Part shown: positions 28,611 to 40,440 of the stretch, one piece after another
Layout of the letters: each line of letters starts with the position of its first letter
Numbering within the stretch: position 1 is the first letter of the stretch
Sequence record: PZ534511.1
Source: a phage
Reading direction: 5' to 3' (one strand)
Length of the DNA: 64,000 nt
Position numbers and translations under genes: made by a program
The notes under the pieces: model-generated
Told to the model about the DNA's origin: nothing
Databases searched by the model: none
What the model saw: the letters and a program-made list of their open reading frames with translations, nothing else

Positions 28611-28860
28611 CATGACATTCGTTTGCATGAAAACAATTAGCAAGTTAACAATTAACAAGTTAATAATATATGACATAATATAAAAGCAGGGCAACTATTA
28701 GCAGATCTATAGTTGCCTTGCTTGTTATGTCATGATTAACTAAATACAAGGCAACTATGATCTGATTAATAGTTTGCAGACAAACTATCACGGGGGTGAT
28801 GGTTACTGCTTTTATATTATGTCGCGACTCCGTCGCGCCATGCCATTCGTTTGCATAGTT
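28611..28860. repeat. cluster of inverted and direct repeats (candidate origin or regulatory site)
   Basis: 18-mer CATGMCATTCGTTTGCAT x2; 21-bp inverted pair at 28668/28807; AAGGCAACTAT and its complement x4. Confidence 0.55.
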
Positions 28861-33149: not shown

Positions 33150-33374
33150 GGTTTTAACTCCTATCTATCCGGTTAATGATTGGGGGCCGCCCCCCTGACA
33201 CGTCCTATTATCCATATTGTAGGGCTTGATGCAAGTACTTCTTTAAAAATTTTTTAAGCGCCTTGGGGGCCGCTGTAGCGCCAAAATAATAAAGGCCATG
33301 CAACCGCATAGCCTTTATGTGATTATATCGCTGCAGGCCCTGCCATGGGCCTTATTTTGCATCATTTGCTGGAA

Positions 33375-33674
33375 TTATTCAGAGAAAACATCGTTCACAA
33401 TAGCGATCACAATGCCGCCCACCTTGTCACGGTCAACAATGCACAAATCACCATAGATCATGTGGTAGTCTGGATGATCTTTCACGGAATAGTCAATGAG
33501 TGTCTTCTTATCGTCCAGCTTTTTGACTTCCATGGTCATTGTAATGAATTGATCGTTAAATGCACTATTGCGGAAGATCATTACCTGGCCGCCTTGACAT
33601 CCAGTGATCTCAACTTCCACGCCGTCTACGATCTGACCATCAAAGAAATAAAGATTATTGGCGGGTATAAACAT
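33375..33674 (-). CDS. hypothetical protein
   Basis: ATG with AGGAG RBS. Confidence 0.45.
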   Translation of the reverse strand: MFIPANNLYFFDGQIVDGVEVEITGCQGGQVMIFRNSAFNDQFITMTMEVKKLDDKKTLIDYSVKDHPDYHMIYGDLCIVDRDKVGGIVIAIVNDVFSE

Positions 33675-33718
33675 GATCATTGCTCCTTTTTGCACTGATT
33701 ATTTTAACAGGGTTTAAA

Positions 33719-33763
33719 TTTACTTTATTGATGGTCCTGGAGTCAAGACCATCTAAAAATAAA
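33719..33763. repeat. 45-bp palindromic element, copy 1 of 3
   Basis: TTTACTTTATTGATGGTCCTGGAGTCAAGACCATCTAAAAATAAA. Confidence 0.7.
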
Positions 33764-33765
33764 TT

Positions 33766-33966
33766 TTACAGGCCTACAATCTCTTTGATTCGTTTAACTG
33801 CTGCCTCAGCGCCTTGGGGGTAGAAATTATGATAACCAATCACGCGGGTAATACTGATCGCCACCTGATGATCTTCATAATACCCCTTGAATATTTCTTG
33901 ACCATCAACCAGCACAGCAATTTTTTCTTCTTTTTTGAAGTTAATAACGCGGATATTGTTGCTCAT
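33766..33966 (-). CDS. hypothetical protein
   Basis: ATG with AAAGGAGAAAC RBS. Confidence 0.4.
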   Translation of the reverse strand: MSNNIRVINFKKEEKIAVLVDGQEIFKGYYEDHQVAISITRVIGYHNFYPQGAEAAVKRIKEIVGL

Positions 33967-34110
33967 TTTGTTTCTCCTTTTGGAACTTTGTCTATGTGGT
34001 GGGGGAGTGTCTCCCCGTTGATTGTTATTATCCATATTCTGGACCGGATTGCAACACCCCGGAAGAAAAATTTTTTGAAAAGTTAGGCCCCCAGGGATCG
34101 GGGGCCGTTA

Positions 34111-34230
34111 TCAGGTGCGTACAGCGATAAAATACATCCCTACGCCTAACAATATTTCAAGGGCGATGATCTCCAGCCATACCATAACACGGCGCGCCTT
34201 ATCGGTGCGGGGCTTATCCTTGGGTGTCAT
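34111..34230 (-). CDS. 39-aa hydrophobic micro-protein (below ORF-track cut-off)
   Basis: AGGAGGAAAGGGGGG RBS; TM-like C-terminus. Confidence 0.35.
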   Translation of the reverse strand: MTPKDKPRTDKARRVMVWLEIIALEILLGVGMYFIAVRT

Positions 34231-34250
34231 CGTCTCCCCCTTTCCTCCTG

Positions 34251-34472
34251 TTAGTAGTGACGTGGTTTGCAATGGCCCCCAGGAGTATTATCACCACGCA
34301 CATTACAAGAAAAATTATCTCTGTCGTTGTTCGATCCATTGTTATAAAATTCCTTAAGATCAGGCCTGAAAATAAAGCTTTCATTATTGAATCCATCCCG
34401 CCAGGCGGCTGGCCTCAAATCTTCACTAAATGGATTAATTAACGTGGTATTATTTAAACGGCTGGCCCACAT
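34251..34472 (-). CDS. hypothetical protein (frame ambiguous with overlapping 34214-34339 TM peptide ORF)
   Basis: two overlapping ORFs in different frames; cannot decide by eye. Confidence 0.25.
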   Translation of the reverse strand: MWASRLNNTTLINPFSEDLRPAAWRDGFNNESFIFRPDLKEFYNNGSNNDRDNFSCNVRGDNTPGGHCKPRHY

Positions 34473-34821
34473 ATTTTCTATTCCTCTCAAATAAGCGATC
34501 CGCCTCAGTTAAACAAATCTCATGGGCGTGATCTCTGGTTTTAGCTTCATCGAAAACCTGTTGTGCAAGGCTGCAACGTAGGGAGACTGGAAGATCACTA
34601 TAATAGGCGTTGACAAACGTTTGAGCGTCGTACAGGTCTGAAAATACTTTACCCTTTCTATTATTCCCCTTGTCAACAATTGCAAGGATAACCAATACAA
34701 TAGTTGCAACCACCCCCAGGAAAATAGATATAATAAACCATAAAAAGGCGGATCTTCCCATCTTGCCAGCGATCCAGGCGTTAAACAAGGCAACCAATAC
34801 AGCCAAAATAATAAATTCCAT
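34450..34821 (-). CDS. membrane protein
   Basis: two hydrophobic helices; ATG with AAGAGG RBS. Confidence 0.45.
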   Translation of the reverse strand: MEFIILAVLVALFNAWIAGKMGRSAFLWFIISIFLGVVATIVLVILAIVDKGNNRKGKVFSDLYDAQTFVNAYYSDLPVSLRCSLAQQVFDEAKTRDHAHEICLTEADRLFERNRKYVGQPFK

Positions 34822-34885
34822 TCTATGTACCTCTTTTACAGTTCTGATTAACAATAAGGCGGCAAATATGCCGCCTGTTACCTGA

Positions 34886-35266
34886 TTAAAAATTATCGCC
34901 GTAAATCTTTCCGCTTTCTACCCATACCACCACGCGAGGCATACTATCCCACACGTCTTGTTTTAGATTGAGCGCGTGCAATTCTTCGGTGGTGCTCATA
35001 CCGGGCACGGGCTGATTGTATACTGCAAAACGACCACCCGCATAATCATAGGCTAGAGTTAAATCACACTGGATCATCTTTTTGATCATGGCATTAAGCA
35101 TGGCGTTAGCCGCATACTGATCACGTTTTAAAGGCAACTCTTTGATTAGTTTGCGATAGTTTTCGATATGGTCGCACACTGTTTCACGCGGAAGATCTTT
35201 CATATCCTCGCGAAAGGTAACCAGGTTAAACATAACGGTGTCAATAGCTTTAGTAGTGTTTTTCAT
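34886..35266 (-). CDS. hypothetical protein
   Basis: ATG preceded by promoter-hairpin-RBS cassette. Confidence 0.45.
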   Translation of the reverse strand: MKNTTKAIDTVMFNLVTFREDMKDLPRETVCDHIENYRKLIKELPLKRDQYAANAMLNAMIKKMIQCDLTLAYDYAGGRFAVYNQPVPGMSTTEELHALNLKQDVWDSMPRVVVWVESGKIYGDNF

Positions 35267-35320
35267 GATGTTTTCCTCTTTGTTTTGTGTGGGGGCAAAC
35301 GTCTTGCCCCCTTGAGTTTT

Positions 35321-35348
35321 AATATAGCAGGTTTTTAGGTTATTGCAA
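35321..35348 (-). promoter_or_regulatory. sigma70-like promoter (minus strand TTGCAA-16-TATATT)
   Basis: hexamers on minus strand followed by GGGGGCAAG...TTGCCCCC hairpin. Confidence 0.5.
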
Positions 35349-35356
35349 CACTTTAT

Positions 35357-35980
35357 TTATGAAAAAGTCATCTCGCCATCTTCATCCACATCAAACCGCC
35401 AATCATTGGCCTCGATAAGGCCGATCAGGTTTTCGGTAGTGAATTGTTCAAGATAGGCCCCCTCCAGGTCTACGTAAACCTTGCGGGATAGCTCCCGTAC
35501 CGTCTCGGTGATCAGCTCTTCCAGGTCTTCCACTTTGTTTTCTTGTTTGGCGGTCAGATCTAGCCAGGTGGTATCAATGTATCCGCTTACAGTGTTTTCA
35601 TGGCTGTAATGGCTGTACTTGTCGCGTTCAACACTGGCTGATAACTCGCCATCGTGCATTGTGCCGAACAAGTGACGAATTGATCGGAACTTGGTCAGGG
35701 CCTTTACTTTACGCAAAAATTTTTCTAAATCCACGTTTTCAGCACTGATTGAAGCGCCGTCACCCTGGCACCAAAAGCCGGACCAATGTACTTCGGTATC
35801 TTCAAGGCCGTACTCTGGAAAGATATATTCTTTGTAGTGTTCAATTACACTTTCTGCAAAAAAGTCATCCCCGCTGTGTTCTTCTCTTTCGCGTACCATT
35901 TCAATGGCTTTTTCTTTTTGTTCGTCGGTCAGCACGTCGAAAGATAAATTGTAACCTGTGGTAATGTTAACGGTGGTCAT
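35357..35980 (-). CDS. hypothetical acidic protein
   Basis: 207-aa ORF; no confidently recognised motif. Confidence 0.5.
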   Translation of the reverse strand: MTTVNITTGYNLSFDVLTDEQKEKAIEMVREREEHSGDDFFAESVIEHYKEYIFPEYGLEDTEVHWSGFWCQGDGASISAENVDLEKFLRKVKALTKFRSIRHLFGTMHDGELSASVERDKYSHYSHENTVSGYIDTTWLDLTAKQENKVEDLEELITETVRELSRKVYVDLEGAYLEQFTTENLIGLIEANDWRFDVDEDGEMTFS

Positions 35981-36037
35981 GATATTTTCTCCTGTTTTCT
36001 TTGTTAGTGGCGGGAAGTTTTCCCGTTTACGTGTTTA

Positions 36038-36065
36038 AGTATACTTATCAAGATTTACTTGTCAA
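36038..36065 (-). promoter_or_regulatory. sigma70-like promoter (minus strand TTGACA-16-TATACT)
   Basis: hexamers on minus strand followed by CGGGAAAACUUCCCG hairpin and RBS. Confidence 0.55.
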
Positions 36066-36315
36066 CACTATTTTTTAAATTATTGTGGCGCAAAATGTTT
36101 AAAATCTCCTCAACGTCATCAACACGGCGGCAATTTTTAAACGCTACCAATTGCCCCATGATTTTAATCACTGGGCGGCCTTGCCAGTGCCCCTGGAGAA
36201 AGCGCGCCTTGACTTTATCGGTGGAACTATCACGCCACCAAATAGCCTTGTTGTTGCAGTAGTAAAAATTATTCAGGACAACATCAACTTTATCAAAATT
36301 TTTTAATTTACGCAT
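36055..36315 (-). CDS. hypothetical protein
   Basis: ORF with AAAGGAG RBS. Confidence 0.4.
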   Translation of the reverse strand: MRKLKNFDKVDVVLNNFYYCNNKAIWWRDSSTDKVKARFLQGHWQGRPVIKIMGQLVAFKNCRRVDDVEEILNILRHNNLKNSVDK

Positions 36316-36496
36316 GGCGTTTACTCCTTTCTCTCTTTGATGTGGTTAGTATAGCTAACCTGTTGACGATGTCAATGATATTTTTAACGCCATAAAACGG
36401 CCTTGGGCGATGTTTTCAGGTTAAAGGGGGCGATTGCATAGGTGGGGGCCTTTTTGGCGCTTACAGGGCCAACCAGGGGCGCTATTCGTAGGATAG

Positions 36497-36525
36497 AAAT
36501 AAAAAGCCCCGCACAATGGCGGGGC
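36497..36525 (-). terminator. rho-independent terminator (minus strand)
   Basis: GCCCCGC-cauugu-GCGGGGC hairpin followed by UUUUUAUUU on minus strand. Confidence 0.55.
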
Positions 36526-36533
36526 GTTGGTTG

Positions 36534-36734
36534 TTATTTGTCTTTATGGCGGTATCGTTCTGCCTGTCGTTCACGTTCCAAAAGTAGGCCGGGCAATTTA
36601 CGATCATAATGATTACGCCAGATCTTCCCAAACCTTTTTGGCTTATTCAGTTTATTGTTACGCTGGCGGCGTTCTGGCAGCTCTTCGGAATCATGAGGGC
36701 GCTTTACAATTTTCTCGAAATTAATTTTCATATA
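36534..36734 (-). CDS. small highly basic protein
   Basis: Arg/Lys-rich; ATG with AAGGGGGG RBS. Confidence 0.4.
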   Translation of the reverse strand, partial: YMKINFEKIVKRPHDSEELPERRQRNNKLNKPKRFGKIWRNHYDRKLPGLLLERERQAERYRHKDK

Positions 36735-37077
36735 TTCCCCCCTTGCTAACTTCAATATTGGCCTGAATAGCCCGGATACGGCGCTTTATAACTTCCTGAT
36801 CTGTGTGATCGTATCCCCAAAAGTCTACAATTTTTGCGCCCCCAGCCTTTAGGCGGTATAGTGTTTCCTGCATTTTGTAAGCCGGGATCGGTCGCGGTGT
36901 TACCTGGTCGCCCTTCTCATTCTTGTACTTGATAATGTAGTCTTCATTGTCGTTGAATACCCAAAATGGGTATTCTGTGAGCGCGTTGCTCTCTTTTTCG
37001 TTTTTAGATTGGATCTTGTTTACAATTAAAGCCGTAGCAATAGCGCCAATAATAAAACTTGCCCCGCTGATCATGTA
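36721..37077 (-). CDS. membrane-anchored protein
   Basis: N-terminal TM helix; AAAGGAGA RBS. Confidence 0.45.
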   Translation of the reverse strand, partial: YMISGASFIIGAIATALIVNKIQSKNEKESNALTEYPFWVFNDNEDYIIKYKNEKGDQVTPRPIPAYKMQETLYRLKAGGAKIVDFWGYDHTDQEVIKRRIRAIQANIEVSKGGIYEN

Positions 37078-37149
37078 CTTTCTCCTTTCATTGTGTTGAT
37101 AAACTGTCTTTATAGATGGCCCTGCTACCAGGACCACCGAAAAAACAGC

Positions 37150-37395
37150 TTATTTGACGATACCGACAAAACAGATCCCGCCTTCCCCTATATAGGCAAT
37201 ATCGGTAATTTTATAATTTGTCAAGATCCGCGTGTTCAGATCATTAATAAAATCGGTCATCGCGTTGGTGTAGTTGTCTTCCGTGTCTAAGGCATAATCC
37301 CAGGTGTAAACCTTTTTACGTCCGAAGCCTTTTACCATGATACGGGCGCTTTTGGTGTTGGTGGGCGCATAATATTTTGTGATTAGTGCTGCCAT
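37150..37395 (-). CDS. hypothetical protein
   Basis: ORF with GAGGAG RBS. Confidence 0.45.
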   Translation of the reverse strand: MAALITKYYAPTNTKSARIMVKGFGRKKVYTWDYALDTEDNYTNAMTDFINDLNTRILTNYKITDIAYIGEGGICFVGIVK

Positions 37396-37435
37396 GGTTT
37401 TAACTCCTCATTAGTTCAGTGTTAACAGTGTAAAG

Positions 37436-37480
37436 TTTACTTTATTGATGGCCCTGGAGTCAAGGCCATCTAAAAATAAA
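37436..37480. repeat. 45-bp palindromic element, copy 2 of 3
   Basis: TTTACTTTATTGATGGCCCTGGAGTCAAGGCCATCTAAAAATAAA. Confidence 0.7.
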
Positions 37481-37482
37481 TT

Positions 37483-37824
37483 TTACTCGTTTTCTTCCAG
37501 CTCTGAAAGCTCTTCTTTCATTTCTTCCAGCTCTGTCTGCAATTCCTGGTATTCTTCATCGTCCTCAATATCCAGGCTGTCGATGTAGTCGCTAAATCCG
37601 CAGCGGTAAGCGATAGGATCTAACTCCTTGAGGATACGCGACGGAAGAAAAGAAATGTTTCCGATCATAATTTCGCCGTAGATCTCGTCTAACCATTCAT
37701 CATAGTTTTCGTCGTACTTGTCCTCGTCGATTTCAAAGTTATCGATCTTATTCTCAAGGTCTGCGATCTGTTTTTTCAGTTCAGCGATCTGCATAGCTTT
37801 TTCTGCGGCGGTCATAGTAGTCAT
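37483..37824 (-). CDS. acidic coiled-coil protein
   Basis: Glu/Asp-rich heptad-like sequence. Confidence 0.45.
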   Translation of the reverse strand: MTTMTAAEKAMQIAELKKQIADLENKIDNFEIDEDKYDENYDEWLDEIYGEIMIGNISFLPSRILKELDPIAYRCGFSDYIDSLDIEDDEEYQELQTELEEMKEELSELEENE

Positions 37825-37875
37825 GGTGTTTTTCTCCTTTTGTGTATTCTGGGAAGTTTTCCCGTTTATGTGCTT

Positions 37876-37903
37876 ATTATATCGATTTAAGTTAGCTTGT
37901 CAA
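37876..37903 (-). promoter_or_regulatory. sigma70-like promoter (minus strand TTGACA-16-TATAAT)
   Basis: consensus hexamers followed by GGGAAAACUUCCC hairpin and AAAAGGAG RBS. Confidence 0.6.
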
Positions 37904-38023
37904 TTAAAAGTTTAAGAAAAATTTTGCGACACCGTTGGCGCTACCCATCAACATTTGCGCCAGGATGTACCCAATGATGCAAACGATAATAGTTACCTTT
38001 GTGTGCTGGCGTGTAGTACTCAT
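37904..38023 (-). CDS. 39-aa hydrophobic micro-protein (below ORF-track cut-off)
   Basis: GAAAGGGGGG RBS; TM-like. Confidence 0.35.
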   Translation of the reverse strand: MSTTRQHTKVTIIVCIIGYILAQMLMGSANGVAKFFLNF

Positions 38024-38057
38024 CTTTAAGCCCCCCTTTCCGCTCAACTGTGGTTAG

Positions 38058-38102
38058 TTTACTTTATTGATGGCCCTGGAGTCAAGGCCATCTAAAAATA
38101 AA
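38058..38102. repeat. 45-bp palindromic element, copy 3 of 3
   Basis: TTTACTTTATTGATGGCCCTGGAGTCAAGGCCATCTAAAAATAAA. Confidence 0.7.
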
Positions 38103-38103
38103 C

Positions 38104-38499
38104 TCAGTAAGTTTTCAGTACTTTCCCGTCCAACCTGTCTAACTGAATCTCAATAGCTGCAGAAAACCTATTGTAAACCACATCGCCCAGGGAGTCCAGC
38201 CAATCTATGACGTTATACACCTGCTCTTTATTCTTGCAAGTCCGGATCCGTTTCATTACGTAAGACGGATCAATATTAGCGCTCTCGTTGTTGTGGTCAT
38301 GCGCCTGGCCTGCTGCGCTAGTTATAGATTTTACAACCACCTGAAAGGGCTTTAAGGTGCCTTTTGCGTTCATCTCACGCGCTTTCGCGGCGCGGTTGTT
38401 GTATGTTACACAACGGTGGCAAATGTTGACCAAATGCATATCAATAATTTTTTCATCGTTTGCCAGTTCGTTCATGATGCGGCGTACGTTCTTATTCAT
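38104..38499 (-). CDS. hypothetical protein
   Basis: ORF preceded by hairpin and AAAGGAAAAAAG RBS. Confidence 0.45.
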   Translation of the reverse strand: MNKNVRRIMNELANDEKIIDMHLVNICHRCVTYNNRAAKAREMNAKGTLKPFQVVVKSITSAAGQAHDHNNESANIDPSYVMKRIRTCKNKEQVYNVIDWLDSLGDVVYNRFSAAIEIQLDRLDGKVLKTY

Positions 38500-38583
38500 G
38501 ATCTTTTTTCCTTTGTGTTGGCGGGAAACATTCCCGCCTTTTGTGTATAGTTTACTTGAATTTTGCAGCGTGTCAATAATTTT

Positions 38584-39959: not shown

Positions 39960-40440
39960 ATTCCCATATAGAAATTTTAAAAATCCATTTCTGAAAACGA
40001 AAAATAGATTTCGTCCCCAAAAATTTCAGGTCGAGATCCGGAACGATTTCCAGAAAATCCGATTCAGAAAACGAAAAACAGATCGAGTACTGAGAAATTT
40101 ATCGAGAAAAATTTTCAGAAAATCCAAGCCCTGGAATGAAAAGTAGATCGAGTACCTGGAAAGCTGCACCGCAACTTCAAGATAGTGGTTAGATTGTTAC
40201 CATAGAAGGTCAAGGGTAAGTGGAGGAAGTTCTAGTAGAGGGAGGTTAGCATGTGTGGGAAATCTATAATGGTGGTCTGGAATATGGTGCAAACGATAGG
40301 ATGAGCTATTCAGCTTGTCGCGCCTACTCTGAAAAATCCATTTTAGTTTTCGATCCATTTTCTGATTTTCTAAGAATTTTAAAATATCCAGCCCGGTGAA
40401 ATATCAAAAGGAGGAAATCCATTTTAGAAATCCCCCTTAT
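39960..40440. repeat. degenerate tandem and dispersed repeats in noncoding DNA
   Basis: recurring TTTCAGAAAATCC, GAAAACGAAAAA, AGATCGAGTAC and AAATCCATTTT words. Confidence 0.55.

Follow-up and report, generated by a model that had tools for sequence, protein, structure and literature searches.

Four intergenic hairpins of an rV5-like phage resemble the RNase III processing sites of phage T7

RNase III processing signals are textbook knowledge for T7-like phages. A substrate of this enzyme offers about two helical turns (~20-22 bp), which may consist of shorter, coaxially stacked helices (PMC1540722, PMC6212723), and has its scissile bond separated from the tetraloop by at least 11 bp (Pertzev & Nicholson 2006, PMC1540722). 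Its distal box is made of U-A and U.G pairs, of which the U.G is stringent, G-C or C-G at position 2 of its proximal box acts as a binding antideterminant, and the sequence of its tetraloop is immaterial (PMC1540722), while internal loops confine cleavage to one strand and leave a protective 3' hairpin (PMC1540722, PMC3867540). A second described system, found in T4-type phages, is that of the promoter-early stem-loop (PeSL) cassettes (Arbiol et al. 2010, PMC2839356; Comeau et al. 2014, PMC4122927). Here we analyse a stretch of 64,000 nucleotides of phage DNA (PZ534511.1; the window), which belongs to a Vequintavirus, an rV5/FV3-like myovirus with a genome of ~137 kb, and we describe in it a hairpin element that follows the stop codons of four minus-strand genes and resembles the T7 sites. 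In the literature we found no report of RNase III signals, or of this element, for the Vequintavirinae, and the putative membership of this subfamily is what is new.

The original prediction had described a 45-nt palindromic element in three copies, and all three are present, at 33719-33763 (copy 1), 37436-37480 (copy 2) and 38058-38102 (copy 3); element, gene and promoter coordinates refer throughout to the minus strand. Their 26-nt core has three matches in the window, where none is expected from 100 dinucleotide-preserving shuffles, and the repeat that they form reaches 57 nt with 84-100% identity (repeat family D3). The count of three was nevertheless too low, as a diverged copy 4 at 37099-37153, found as repeat family D1, had been overlooked; it keeps the structure but differs in the loop and the lower stem. 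Each element occupies an intergenic gap, within a predicted transcription unit, starting at, or 1-2 nt past, the stop codon of the upstream open reading frame (ORF) and ending 20-45 nt before the next start codon. For copies 1, 2 and 3 the distances to the stop are 2, 2 and 1 nt (minus-strand ORF ends at 33766, 37483 and 38104), so that the adjacency to the stop codon first noticed stands and the spacing of 2-3 nt given for it holds for two copies of the three.

When the sense strand was folded, all four copies formed a two-tier hairpin of 49-57 nt, in which a lower stem of 8-13 bp leads through a 2x3 internal loop into an upper stem of 10 bp capped by a tetraloop. The stem initially seen as 7 bp is thus longer on the minus strand, where U.G, U-A and G-C pairs extend it to 10 bp and leave a tetraloop, and with a full helix of ~20 bp the objection that 7 bp would be too short for RNase III falls. 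Since a second, AU-rich stem of 8-13 bp lies below the internal loop, the structure overlaps the stop codon. The asymmetric internal loop reads UA/AAU in copies 1-3 and UC/UAU in copy 4, and its 2x3 size is constant in all copies and all relatives. The upper stem includes one U.G pair, or two G.U pairs in copy 4. Folding energies ranged from -21.5 to -30.1 kcal/mol on the sense strand (z -6.3 to -8.5) and from -13.8 to -21.0 kcal/mol on the antisense strand (z -2.7 to -4.8), which folds worse because wobble pairs turn into C.A mismatches. When both strands of the whole window were folded in sliding 64-nt segments, copy 4 came second in stability, and copies 3 and 2 were likewise among the best single hairpins.

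Copy 3 extends over 38056..38104 (-25.1 kcal/mol, z = -6.3), with a lower stem that pairs 38104-38095 with 38065-38056, an internal loop of UA (38094-38093) and AAU (38068-38066), and an upper stem of 38092-38083 with 38078-38069 closed by the tetraloop ACUC (38082-38079). Copy 2, at 37430..37486 (-25.1 kcal/mol, z = -8.2), pairs 37470-37461 with 37456-37447 in its upper stem, with an apical loop at 37460-37457 and AAU at 37446-37444 on the 3' side of the internal loop. Copy 1, at 33716..33766 (-21.5 kcal/mol, z = -6.6), pairs 33753-33744 with 33739-33730, with a U-A pair in place of C-G, an apical loop at 33743-33740 and AAU at 33729-33727 in its 3' internal loop. In copy 4, at 37099..37153 (-30.1 kcal/mol, z = -8.5), the upper stem GGUGGUCCUG/CAGGGCCAUC pairs 37138-37129 with 37124-37115 above an internal loop of UC and UAU and a 13-bp lower stem, the tetraloop is GUAG, and the motif TTGAC of the other copies is missing.

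Searching the genome and its relatives for the element, as had been proposed, recovered it at conserved places. Model R1, a covariance model whose six training sequences are the four window copies and two copy-4 sequences of relatives, located exactly four sites in the window, all on the sense strand, at 78-82 bits (copy 3, 82; copy 2, 79.6; copy 4, 79.5; copy 1, 77.9), with the next best match at 12.6 bits and antisense scores at the elements of 33-41 bits. In the complete FV3 genome, too, it gave four sites and no more, and 15 further loci had them at the same syntenic positions. BLAST placed three near-identical copies in about 120 Vequintavirus records, and EdH4, FV3 and many others are 94-95% identical to a 6-kb query from the window. 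No significant match to model R1 appeared in 40-kb samples of Justusliebigvirus alia and Certrevirus PcCB7V. The E. coli genomes hold no copy of the element, which is therefore not host-derived or of the repetitive extragenic palindrome (REP) type. In Rfam nothing reaches the gathering threshold, the best overlap being the rhtB small RNA at 24.6 bits against a threshold of 55 (E = 0.9), and the promoter/terminator table of rV5 does not list the element. Among the records retrieved, 17 labelled 'Campylobacter phage' (MG0656xx, e.g. L037) are about 94% identical to E. coli Vequintaviruses; one of them, A12a, was opened and is flagged UNVERIFIED, and these are probably mislabelled or contaminant genomes.

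Covariation of the stem in relatives, which the original prediction had made the measure of its hairpin, was observed in 42 distinct sense-strand sequences from 16 genomes. This set was drawn from annotated phage records, as protein-anchored scans of IMG/VR and metagenomes gave six loci only, and members of the genus differ little from each other (by about 5-15%). In these sequences pairing is complete in the upper helix (100%) and reaches 94% in the lower helix, against 37-60% when the 3' partner was slid as a control; five pairs are altered on both sides, and the covariation score of 0.204 (0.127 for shuffled alignments) was reached by 0/500 shuffles. G.U pairs make up about 13% of the paired cells and would be mismatches if read on the other strand; as pairing is kept by way of G-C to G.U to A-U, the changes make sense on the sense strand only. 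One upper-stem pair, for instance, is mostly C-G, U.G in copy 4 and in copy 3 of FFH2, and U-A in copy 1 of the window, and two pairs in the lower stem of copy 4 vary across relatives as G-C/G.U/A-U and C-G/U-A. The compensatory change first noticed in copy 1 (GATGGTC...GACCATC, elsewhere GATGGCC...GGCCATC) is real and does keep the pairing, and the U.G of FFH2 copy 3 is its intermediate; the change is particular to this genome, and copy 1 has C/G in the relatives. The loop varies among ACUC, ACAC, ACUU, ACGC and AUAAC in copies 1-3 and among GUAG, GUUG, GUAA, GCUG and GUGG in copy 4. Because the stems covary with G.U pairs while the loop varies, the object under selection is the RNA helix on the mRNA strand and not a DNA palindrome. 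In copy 3 of Gotham (L036:5998-6059) a 5-nt deletion, GGGCC, takes away most of the 3' arm of the upper stem, so that neither the hairpin nor a properly spaced promoter is possible there; a natural knockout and a sequencing error are the two explanations for it.

Next, we compared the elements with the RNase III sites of T7 in both directions. The five early intergenic gaps of T7 fold to the same design: the centroid structure of T7 R1 shows a tetraloop on a 9-bp upper stem above a 2x3 loop, and T7 R0.5 folds into 8 bp, a 4x5 loop and 10 bp. The identity of R1.1 was checked against the numbering in PMC1540722 (A9:U30, U12:G27, C13:G26 and the GCAA loop). A Vectrevirus hairpin is built like copy 4: its lower stem, here of 7 bp, is followed by a UC/UAU loop and by a 10-bp upper stem that opens with GGUGG and carries a tetraloop. 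The two best matches of model R1 in the T7 early region, non-significant, are the hairpins of R0.3 and T7 R1, and in three other T7-like podoviruses early intergenic hairpins are matched significantly (29.9, 29.7 and 24.5 bits). One of these matches lies directly upstream of a 2.7-kb gene that we take to be the RNA polymerase gene, which is the place of T7 R1.

In the reverse direction we used model R2, a covariance model built from the five T7 early RNase III sites only. In the 64-kb window, searched with all filters off, the four copies are hits 1-4, at 28.6 bits (copy 3, the top match, E about 1e-4), 25.9 (copy 1), 24.3 (copy 2) and 23.1 bits (copy 4), with E-values of 1e-4 to 4e-3 that are rough, as model E-values. 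All four are matched on the sense strand, full length and gapless, with no antisense match; elsewhere in the window one other hairpin reaches 20 bits and everything else stays at or below 14 bits. In the whole of FV3, searched together with 81 kb from two other genera, nothing but the elements stands out (24-31 bits), although with default filters three of the four FV3 copies were reported and copy 4 was not, and in 12 relatives the elements score up to 33 bits. As a positive control, T7 late sites on which the model was not trained scored 45.7, 45.7, 28.4 and 13.9 bits (the gaps before genes 18.5, 4.7, 6.5 and 3.8, respectively), R13 being missed, and the scores of the elements lie inside this range. 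The 23 decoy viral contigs, 22 of them with an identical 10-bp upper stem and one (L010) differing at one pair of it, gave no match with default filters. A likeness between the upper-stem duplex and a T7 duplex in flipped orientation was set aside as a mere curiosity, the core GGCC being palindromic.

The other window hairpin that model R2 scores at 20 bits (E about 0.03) lies at 33274..33335, within a larger fold at 33262-33345, downstream of the ORF at 33375..33695, and is not homologous to the four copies. It reads AUAAAGGCUAUGC-GGUU-GCAUGGCCUUUAU followed by UAUUUUGG, has UGGCCUUUAU in common with T7 RNase III sites, and occurs at the same syntenic position in relatives (17.6-20.6 bits). 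The EdH4 annotation calls it a terminator, and the terminator scan also lists it; it could be a T7-like site, an intrinsic terminator or both.

The decoys came from a scan of IMG/VR for the upper-stem pattern, which returned two Vequintavirus contigs only and otherwise mostly an unrelated hairpin family. Some 22 related viral contigs (L003-L028 except L010, L011, L015 and L016; e.g. L009:3415-3438 and L014:4950-4973) carry UUUCCUC-GAUGGCCUUG-GNRA-CAGGGCCAUC-CGGRAAA at 15-20 nt upstream of AGGAG...ATG, the downstream ORF in L009 having 81 aa. Their 10-bp stem has the same sequence as the upper stem of the element, and the hairpin matches neither an Rfam family nor model R2. The family is about what chance would give for the search pattern and is not evidence for the interpretation given here; it looks like an undescribed hairpin of 5' untranslated regions.

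We then examined the features by which RNase III recognises and cuts its substrates. In the four copies, the 10-bp upper stem and the 8-13-bp lower stem span about two helical turns across the conserved 2x3 loop, which is the kind of internal loop seen at target sites. Going down from the apical loop, copies 1-3 show a closing G-C pair and then U-A and U.G, a distal box in the register of R1.1, and this box is present in 30/31 distinct copy 1-3 sequences (columns 29/40 and 30/39). Position 2 of the proximal box (columns 23/46) is A-U in copies 1-3 and G.U in copy 4, free of the antideterminants G-C and C-G. The 3' side of the internal loop, AAU or UAU, is equivalent to the UAU ahead of the cut in T7. 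With the register mapped from R1.1, the cut is therefore predicted right after the U of this 3-nt loop, at 38066/38065 in copy 3, 37444/37443 in copy 2, 37112/37111 in copy 4 and 33727/33726 in copy 1; between it and the tetraloop there would be 10 bp and a non-canonical A x A pair, where native R1.1 has U.C. In sequence and structure together, the likeness to validated sites amounts to 23-33 bits with model R2, as its top matches.

The elements would then be T7-type single-cut RNase III processing or stability signals in polycistronic mRNA, a reading that we hold, on balance, to be probable. An RNA processing or stability element, for example an RNase III site, was among the options of the original prediction and is the one best supported, by the sense-strand folding, the G.U-mediated covariation, the T7-type two-tier geometry, the reciprocal detection by covariance models and the boxes in the register of R1.1. 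The minus strand carries every gene in the element-bearing part of the window, and in FV3 the elements fall among the small ORFs 165-178, near the far end of a long leftward unit that begins at rIIB and passes through the replication genes. For rV5 this unit has been proposed to be a single transcriptional unit, dependence on host-type promoters has been stated, and no phage RNA polymerase has been reported (PMC3606486). Host RNA polymerase would make polycistronic early RNAs from strong promoters, such as those predicted at 38576 and 37903, and a hairpin would form directly past each stop codon. Host RNase III would bind the ~20-bp, ~two-turn helix, in which the 10-bp upper stem is stacked on the 8-13-bp lower stem, and the internal loop would limit cutting to the 3' side, right after the AAU/UAU loop. 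The upstream cistron would thus end in a stable hairpin at its stop codon, shielded from 3' exonucleases, and the downstream cistron would begin with a short unstructured 5'-monophosphate leader.

Several points weigh against this interpretation. Copy 4 has C-G where the distal box needs U.G, and in the uR1.1 substrate substitution at this U.G lowers reactivity more than 30-fold (PMC1540722). Position 3 of the proximal box is G-C in the elements and A-U in R1.1. As the four copies are paralogous, they amount to about two independent observations and not four, and part of the R2 score is due to generic geometry and AU-rich flanks. Apart from R1.1, the T7 hairpins that we take to be R0.3, R0.5, R1 and R1.3 bear names after Dunn and Studier (1983) that were assigned with the help of their likeness to R1.1. 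In the literature on the Vequintavirus group we found no transcriptomics or end-mapping study. Finally, the invariant TTGAC and TAAAYT of copies 1-3 could mirror promoter function instead of, or besides, recognition by RNase III.

This last point leads to the strongest rival, in which the elements form a PeSL-like DNA or transcription cassette, with a sigma70 early promoter for the downstream ORFan and a stem-loop that attenuates read-through, and RNase III plays no part; we regard it as unlikely, though it accounts for several observations. The original prediction had overlooked both the sigma70-like hexamers and the recombination between copies. In copy 3, TTGACT (38085-38080) and TAAACT (38061-38056) are separated by an 18-nt spacer and match the consensus at 9/12 positions, and the same arrangement is found in copy 2 (37463-37434) and copy 1 (33746-33717, with TAAATT). 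At the DNA level copies 1-3 thus read TTGACT-N18-TAAAYT, with a T-rich tract upstream that forms an AT-rich tract at about -52 to -43, and relatives often have TTGACA at the -35-like site, which raises the match to 10/12. TTGAC and TAAAYT are invariant in copies 1-3 but for one TTGATA. The Gotham record has automatic PhagePromoter annotations at the positions of copies 1, 2 and 4, and a hairpin of Providencia phage PS3, with the apex GCUUGAC...CAGGC and the 3' arm UAAAGUAACUAAC (its counterpart in copy 3 is UAAAGUAAACUAAC), was annotated by its authors as a promoter, TTGACA-N17-TAAAGT. The elements also lie among ORFans that lack a Pfam domain, in an ORFan-rich plastic region with recombination indels between copies, as PeSLs do. 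Since the minor E. coli promoters C and E of T7 start inside RNase III hairpins, the two functions can coexist and a dual role in promotion and processing is possible; copies 1-3 may have weak sigma70 promoter activity, to judge from their hexamers.

The same hexamers are, on the other side, accounted for by the hairpin. TTG lies in the three uppermost pairs of the upper stem (U.G, U-A and G-C), with AC as the first half of the tetraloop, so that the conserved TTG of the -35-like motif is explained by the distal box and its closing pair, and TAAAYT by the AU-rich lower stem. Matches of 9/12 are common by chance (46 found, 25 expected). Genuine early promoters of this phage read TTGACA-16/17-TATAAT, both in the window scan and in Table S4 of rV5, and include a consensus TTGACA-16-TATAAT at 37903-37876, between copies 3 and 2; against these the element, with its 18-nt spacer, is a weak outlier that the rV5 promoter list does not contain. 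Copy 4 lacks the -35 hexamer and yet is the most stable and best covarying copy, and copy 3 of the most diverged relative retains the hairpin with altered hexamer spacing. Selection on G.U pairs and on the complementarity of the lower stem works at the RNA level. Nor is termination or attenuation likely: as the original prediction had observed, the elements have no U-tract and are no classical intrinsic terminators, the 3' flank (AAUAAAG or UAUAAAG, no U-run) being A-rich on both strands and the copies being absent from the terminator scan, so that, by these sequence criteria, an intrinsic terminator, and with it the terminator-like stem-loop of a PeSL, was rejected.

The recombination between copies, which PeSLs also show (PMC2839356, PMC4122927), deserves a description of its own. 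A cassette lies between copies 3 and 2 (37481..38055) and comprises a small ORF, the consensus promoter and a 113-aa ORF; ECP32, magaca and the IMG/VR contig UViG_2051223002 lack exactly this cassette of roughly 620 bp and retain a single chimeric element, whose 5' flank is that of copy 3 and whose 3' flank is that of copy 2. Such deletions occur in three different single-nucleotide polymorphism backgrounds, and the genomes compared indicate that copies 1-3, as 57-bp direct repeats, recombine with one another. The loop variants ACAC and ACUU appear at different paralogous sites in different genomes, a movement that suggests gene conversion. Recombination of the repeats accounts for a recurrent polymorphism of gene content in the genus, the loss of the cassette of the 39-aa and 113-aa ORFs. 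For the most diverged relative (L030) we had suspected that a cassette was swapped next to copy 3, on its downstream side, but discarded this, as the region is merely more diverged (~85% identity, with a patch of 60-66%). Past copy 1, EdH4, JLBYU08, FFH2 and others have two tandem genes of 99 aa and 116 aa, where the window (~33375-33700), V18 and Gotham have one gene only and about 345 bp less (compare L001:857-1524 and L002:855-1522). Some of the first tandem genes share the N-terminus MIMFI with the window gene, and the leader differs in FFH2 and Mangalyan; the single-gene state could be a deletion, perhaps by recombination of the related tandem genes.

A less probable rival than the PeSL-like cassette keeps the RNA and changes the factor: the hairpin might be a cut-free 3' stabiliser or barrier to RNase E, or the site of a phage RNA-binding protein such as an antiterminator or translational regulator. 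The structure and covariation fit this equally, as does the deviation of copy 4 from the canonical distal box. A plain stabiliser, however, would have no need of a conserved 2x3 loop or of a second stem that covaries; the free variation of the tetraloop, and its difference in copy 4, make proteins that read the loop (boxB/N or coat-protein types) unlikely; the hairpin, ending 20-45 nt upstream, is clear of ribosome-binding sites; and the likeness to T7 RNase III sites would be left unexplained. N4-type hairpin promoters, which bear on the remaining rival, have 5-7-bp stems and 3-nt loops and require a virion RNA polymerase. A function at the DNA level (the operator palindrome of a dimeric protein, a cruciform, an N4-type hairpin promoter or a mobile repeat resembling a miniature inverted-repeat transposable element) is very improbable, for although the core GATGGCC(N10)GGCCATC is an inverted repeat overlapping the -35-like hexamer and three copies are nearly identical, the substitutions keep RNA pairing through G.U and break the DNA dyad symmetry that the protein-binding palindrome of the original prediction would have, the loop varies freely, the two strands are not equivalent, the half-sites of copy 4 are unlike each other (GGTGGTC and GGCCATC), E. 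coli genomes hold no copy, and the element is not mobile, given that about 120 genomes carry it in fixed number and at fixed, syntenic positions with no extra insertions. The N4-type promoter was rejected in particular on its stem and loop, unlike those of the element, and on the rV5 paper, which reports no phage RNA polymerase.

The genes around the elements are small. Copy 3 lies between an upstream ORF of 131 aa (38104..38499) and a downstream one of 39-47 aa (37904..38023/38047), and copy 2 follows the 113-aa ORF (37483..37824). An 81-aa ORF (37150..37395) separates copies 2 and 4, and downstream of copy 4 a 117-aa ORF starts at about 37074. Copy 1 has an 89-aa ORF (33766..34035) upstream and one of ~101-106 aa (33375..33695) downstream. 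The ORFs flanking the elements gave no significant match in Pfam; seven had no hit at all, and the 113-aa ORF had hits that were all below the curated cut-offs.

Two further repeats of the window stand apart from the elements. At 28669-28764, on both strands, long nested inverted repeats (GCAAGGCAACUAUAG...) form the strongest local fold of the whole window (-30.8 kcal/mol). GC skew and coding strand switch there, and the repeats are probably part of the non-coding region that the rV5 paper describes. At 39962-40162 there are three direct repeats with aligned units of 62 nt, 65-74 nt apart and 63-71% identical to the reference copy (...UUUCAGAAAAUCC...GAAAACGAAAAAYAGAU...), together with a 16-pair hairpin at 40024-39987.

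If RNase III cuts at these elements, the early ORFan operons of rV5-like phages, which are widely used in E. coli O157 typing and in biocontrol, would be processed as in T7, and T7-type signals would extend beyond the Autographiviridae. The elements would offer a handle on the balance of early-gene expression and on the dependence of the phage on host rnc, and annotation would gain, as such sites are now unannotated or called promoters. The finding would also join two ideas so far kept apart, RNase III sites and PeSL-type shuffling cassettes.

Observations in other phages touch on this second idea. In T7-like podoviruses, distant homologues of the 113-aa and 81-aa ORFans lie directly downstream of hairpins that model R2 scores at 37.9 and 22.6 bits, and in Seuratvirus CAjan hairpins stand on either side of an 81-aa ORFan homologue; they are bordered by U-rich sequence 5' and A-rich sequence 3' and score weakly with the element model (12.6-16.6 bits; the podovirus and CAjan loci are L051:2851-2909, L052:2928-2982, L053:2409-2477 and L053:2731-2798). 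These loci hint at ORFans that may move together with their processing hairpins. A wider proposal, which we consider doubtful, is that modular units of processing site and promoter travel with ORFans between coliphage groups (T7-like podoviruses, Seuratvirus, rV5-like phages), their identity driving shuffling in the style of PeSLs. Were it true, PeSL-type stem-loops in general might be RNase III sites and not terminators, and the constraints of recognition by host RNase III would keep cassettes similar enough to recombine.

Among known systems, one likeness is to the RNase III sites of lambda and of SP82. In lambda, sib and the N-leader contain RNase III sites, and the double-strand cut in sib destabilises the upstream gene. 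The early mRNA of the Bacillus phage SP82, a large myovirus, is said to carry RNase III sites in several closely similar copies, reportedly described by Panganiban and Whiteley in 1983. Like our elements, these would be intergenic or 3'-flanking hairpins in early phage transcripts, cut by the RNase III of the host in the control of mRNA stability, although in SP82 the host enzyme is a different one, Bs-RNase III; we take this likeness as a lead only.

The PeSLs are a second system with shared features. Both they and the elements are repeated intergenic motifs of an ORFan-rich plastic region, in both neighbouring copies recombine so that a cassette is lost and one chimera remains, and in both polymorphisms are common to paralogous copies; copies 1-3 further share the AT-rich tract, the sigma70-like hexamers and a stem-loop that overlaps the promoter boxes. 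The elements differ in belonging to another phage group, the Vequintavirinae, with only four copies at fixed positions, in a promoter match that is weak (N18, TAAAYT) and absent in copy 4, and in their stem, which is a two-tier helix like that of T7 RNase III sites, without a U-tract, whereas the stem of the PeSLs is polyG/polyC and terminator-like.

The RNase III sites of T7 remain the closest counterpart. They have been mapped biochemically, whereas cleavage of the elements is predicted, and they belong to a phage unlike the 137-kb myovirus, reliant on host RNA polymerase, in which the elements sit; the lower stem of the elements is almost pure A-U, and three of the copies are near-identical 57-bp DNA repeats that recombine. 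The internal loop, 2x3 in the elements, is mostly 4x5 in T7, but T7 R1, PS3 and the Vectrevirus hairpin also have 2x3. What the two have in common is a lower stem, an asymmetric internal loop, an upper stem of 9-10 bp and a loop of 4-5 nt, placed between cistrons right past a stop codon, in what would be early polycistronic RNA, with several sequence-related copies per genome and promoters that adjoin or overlap the sites.

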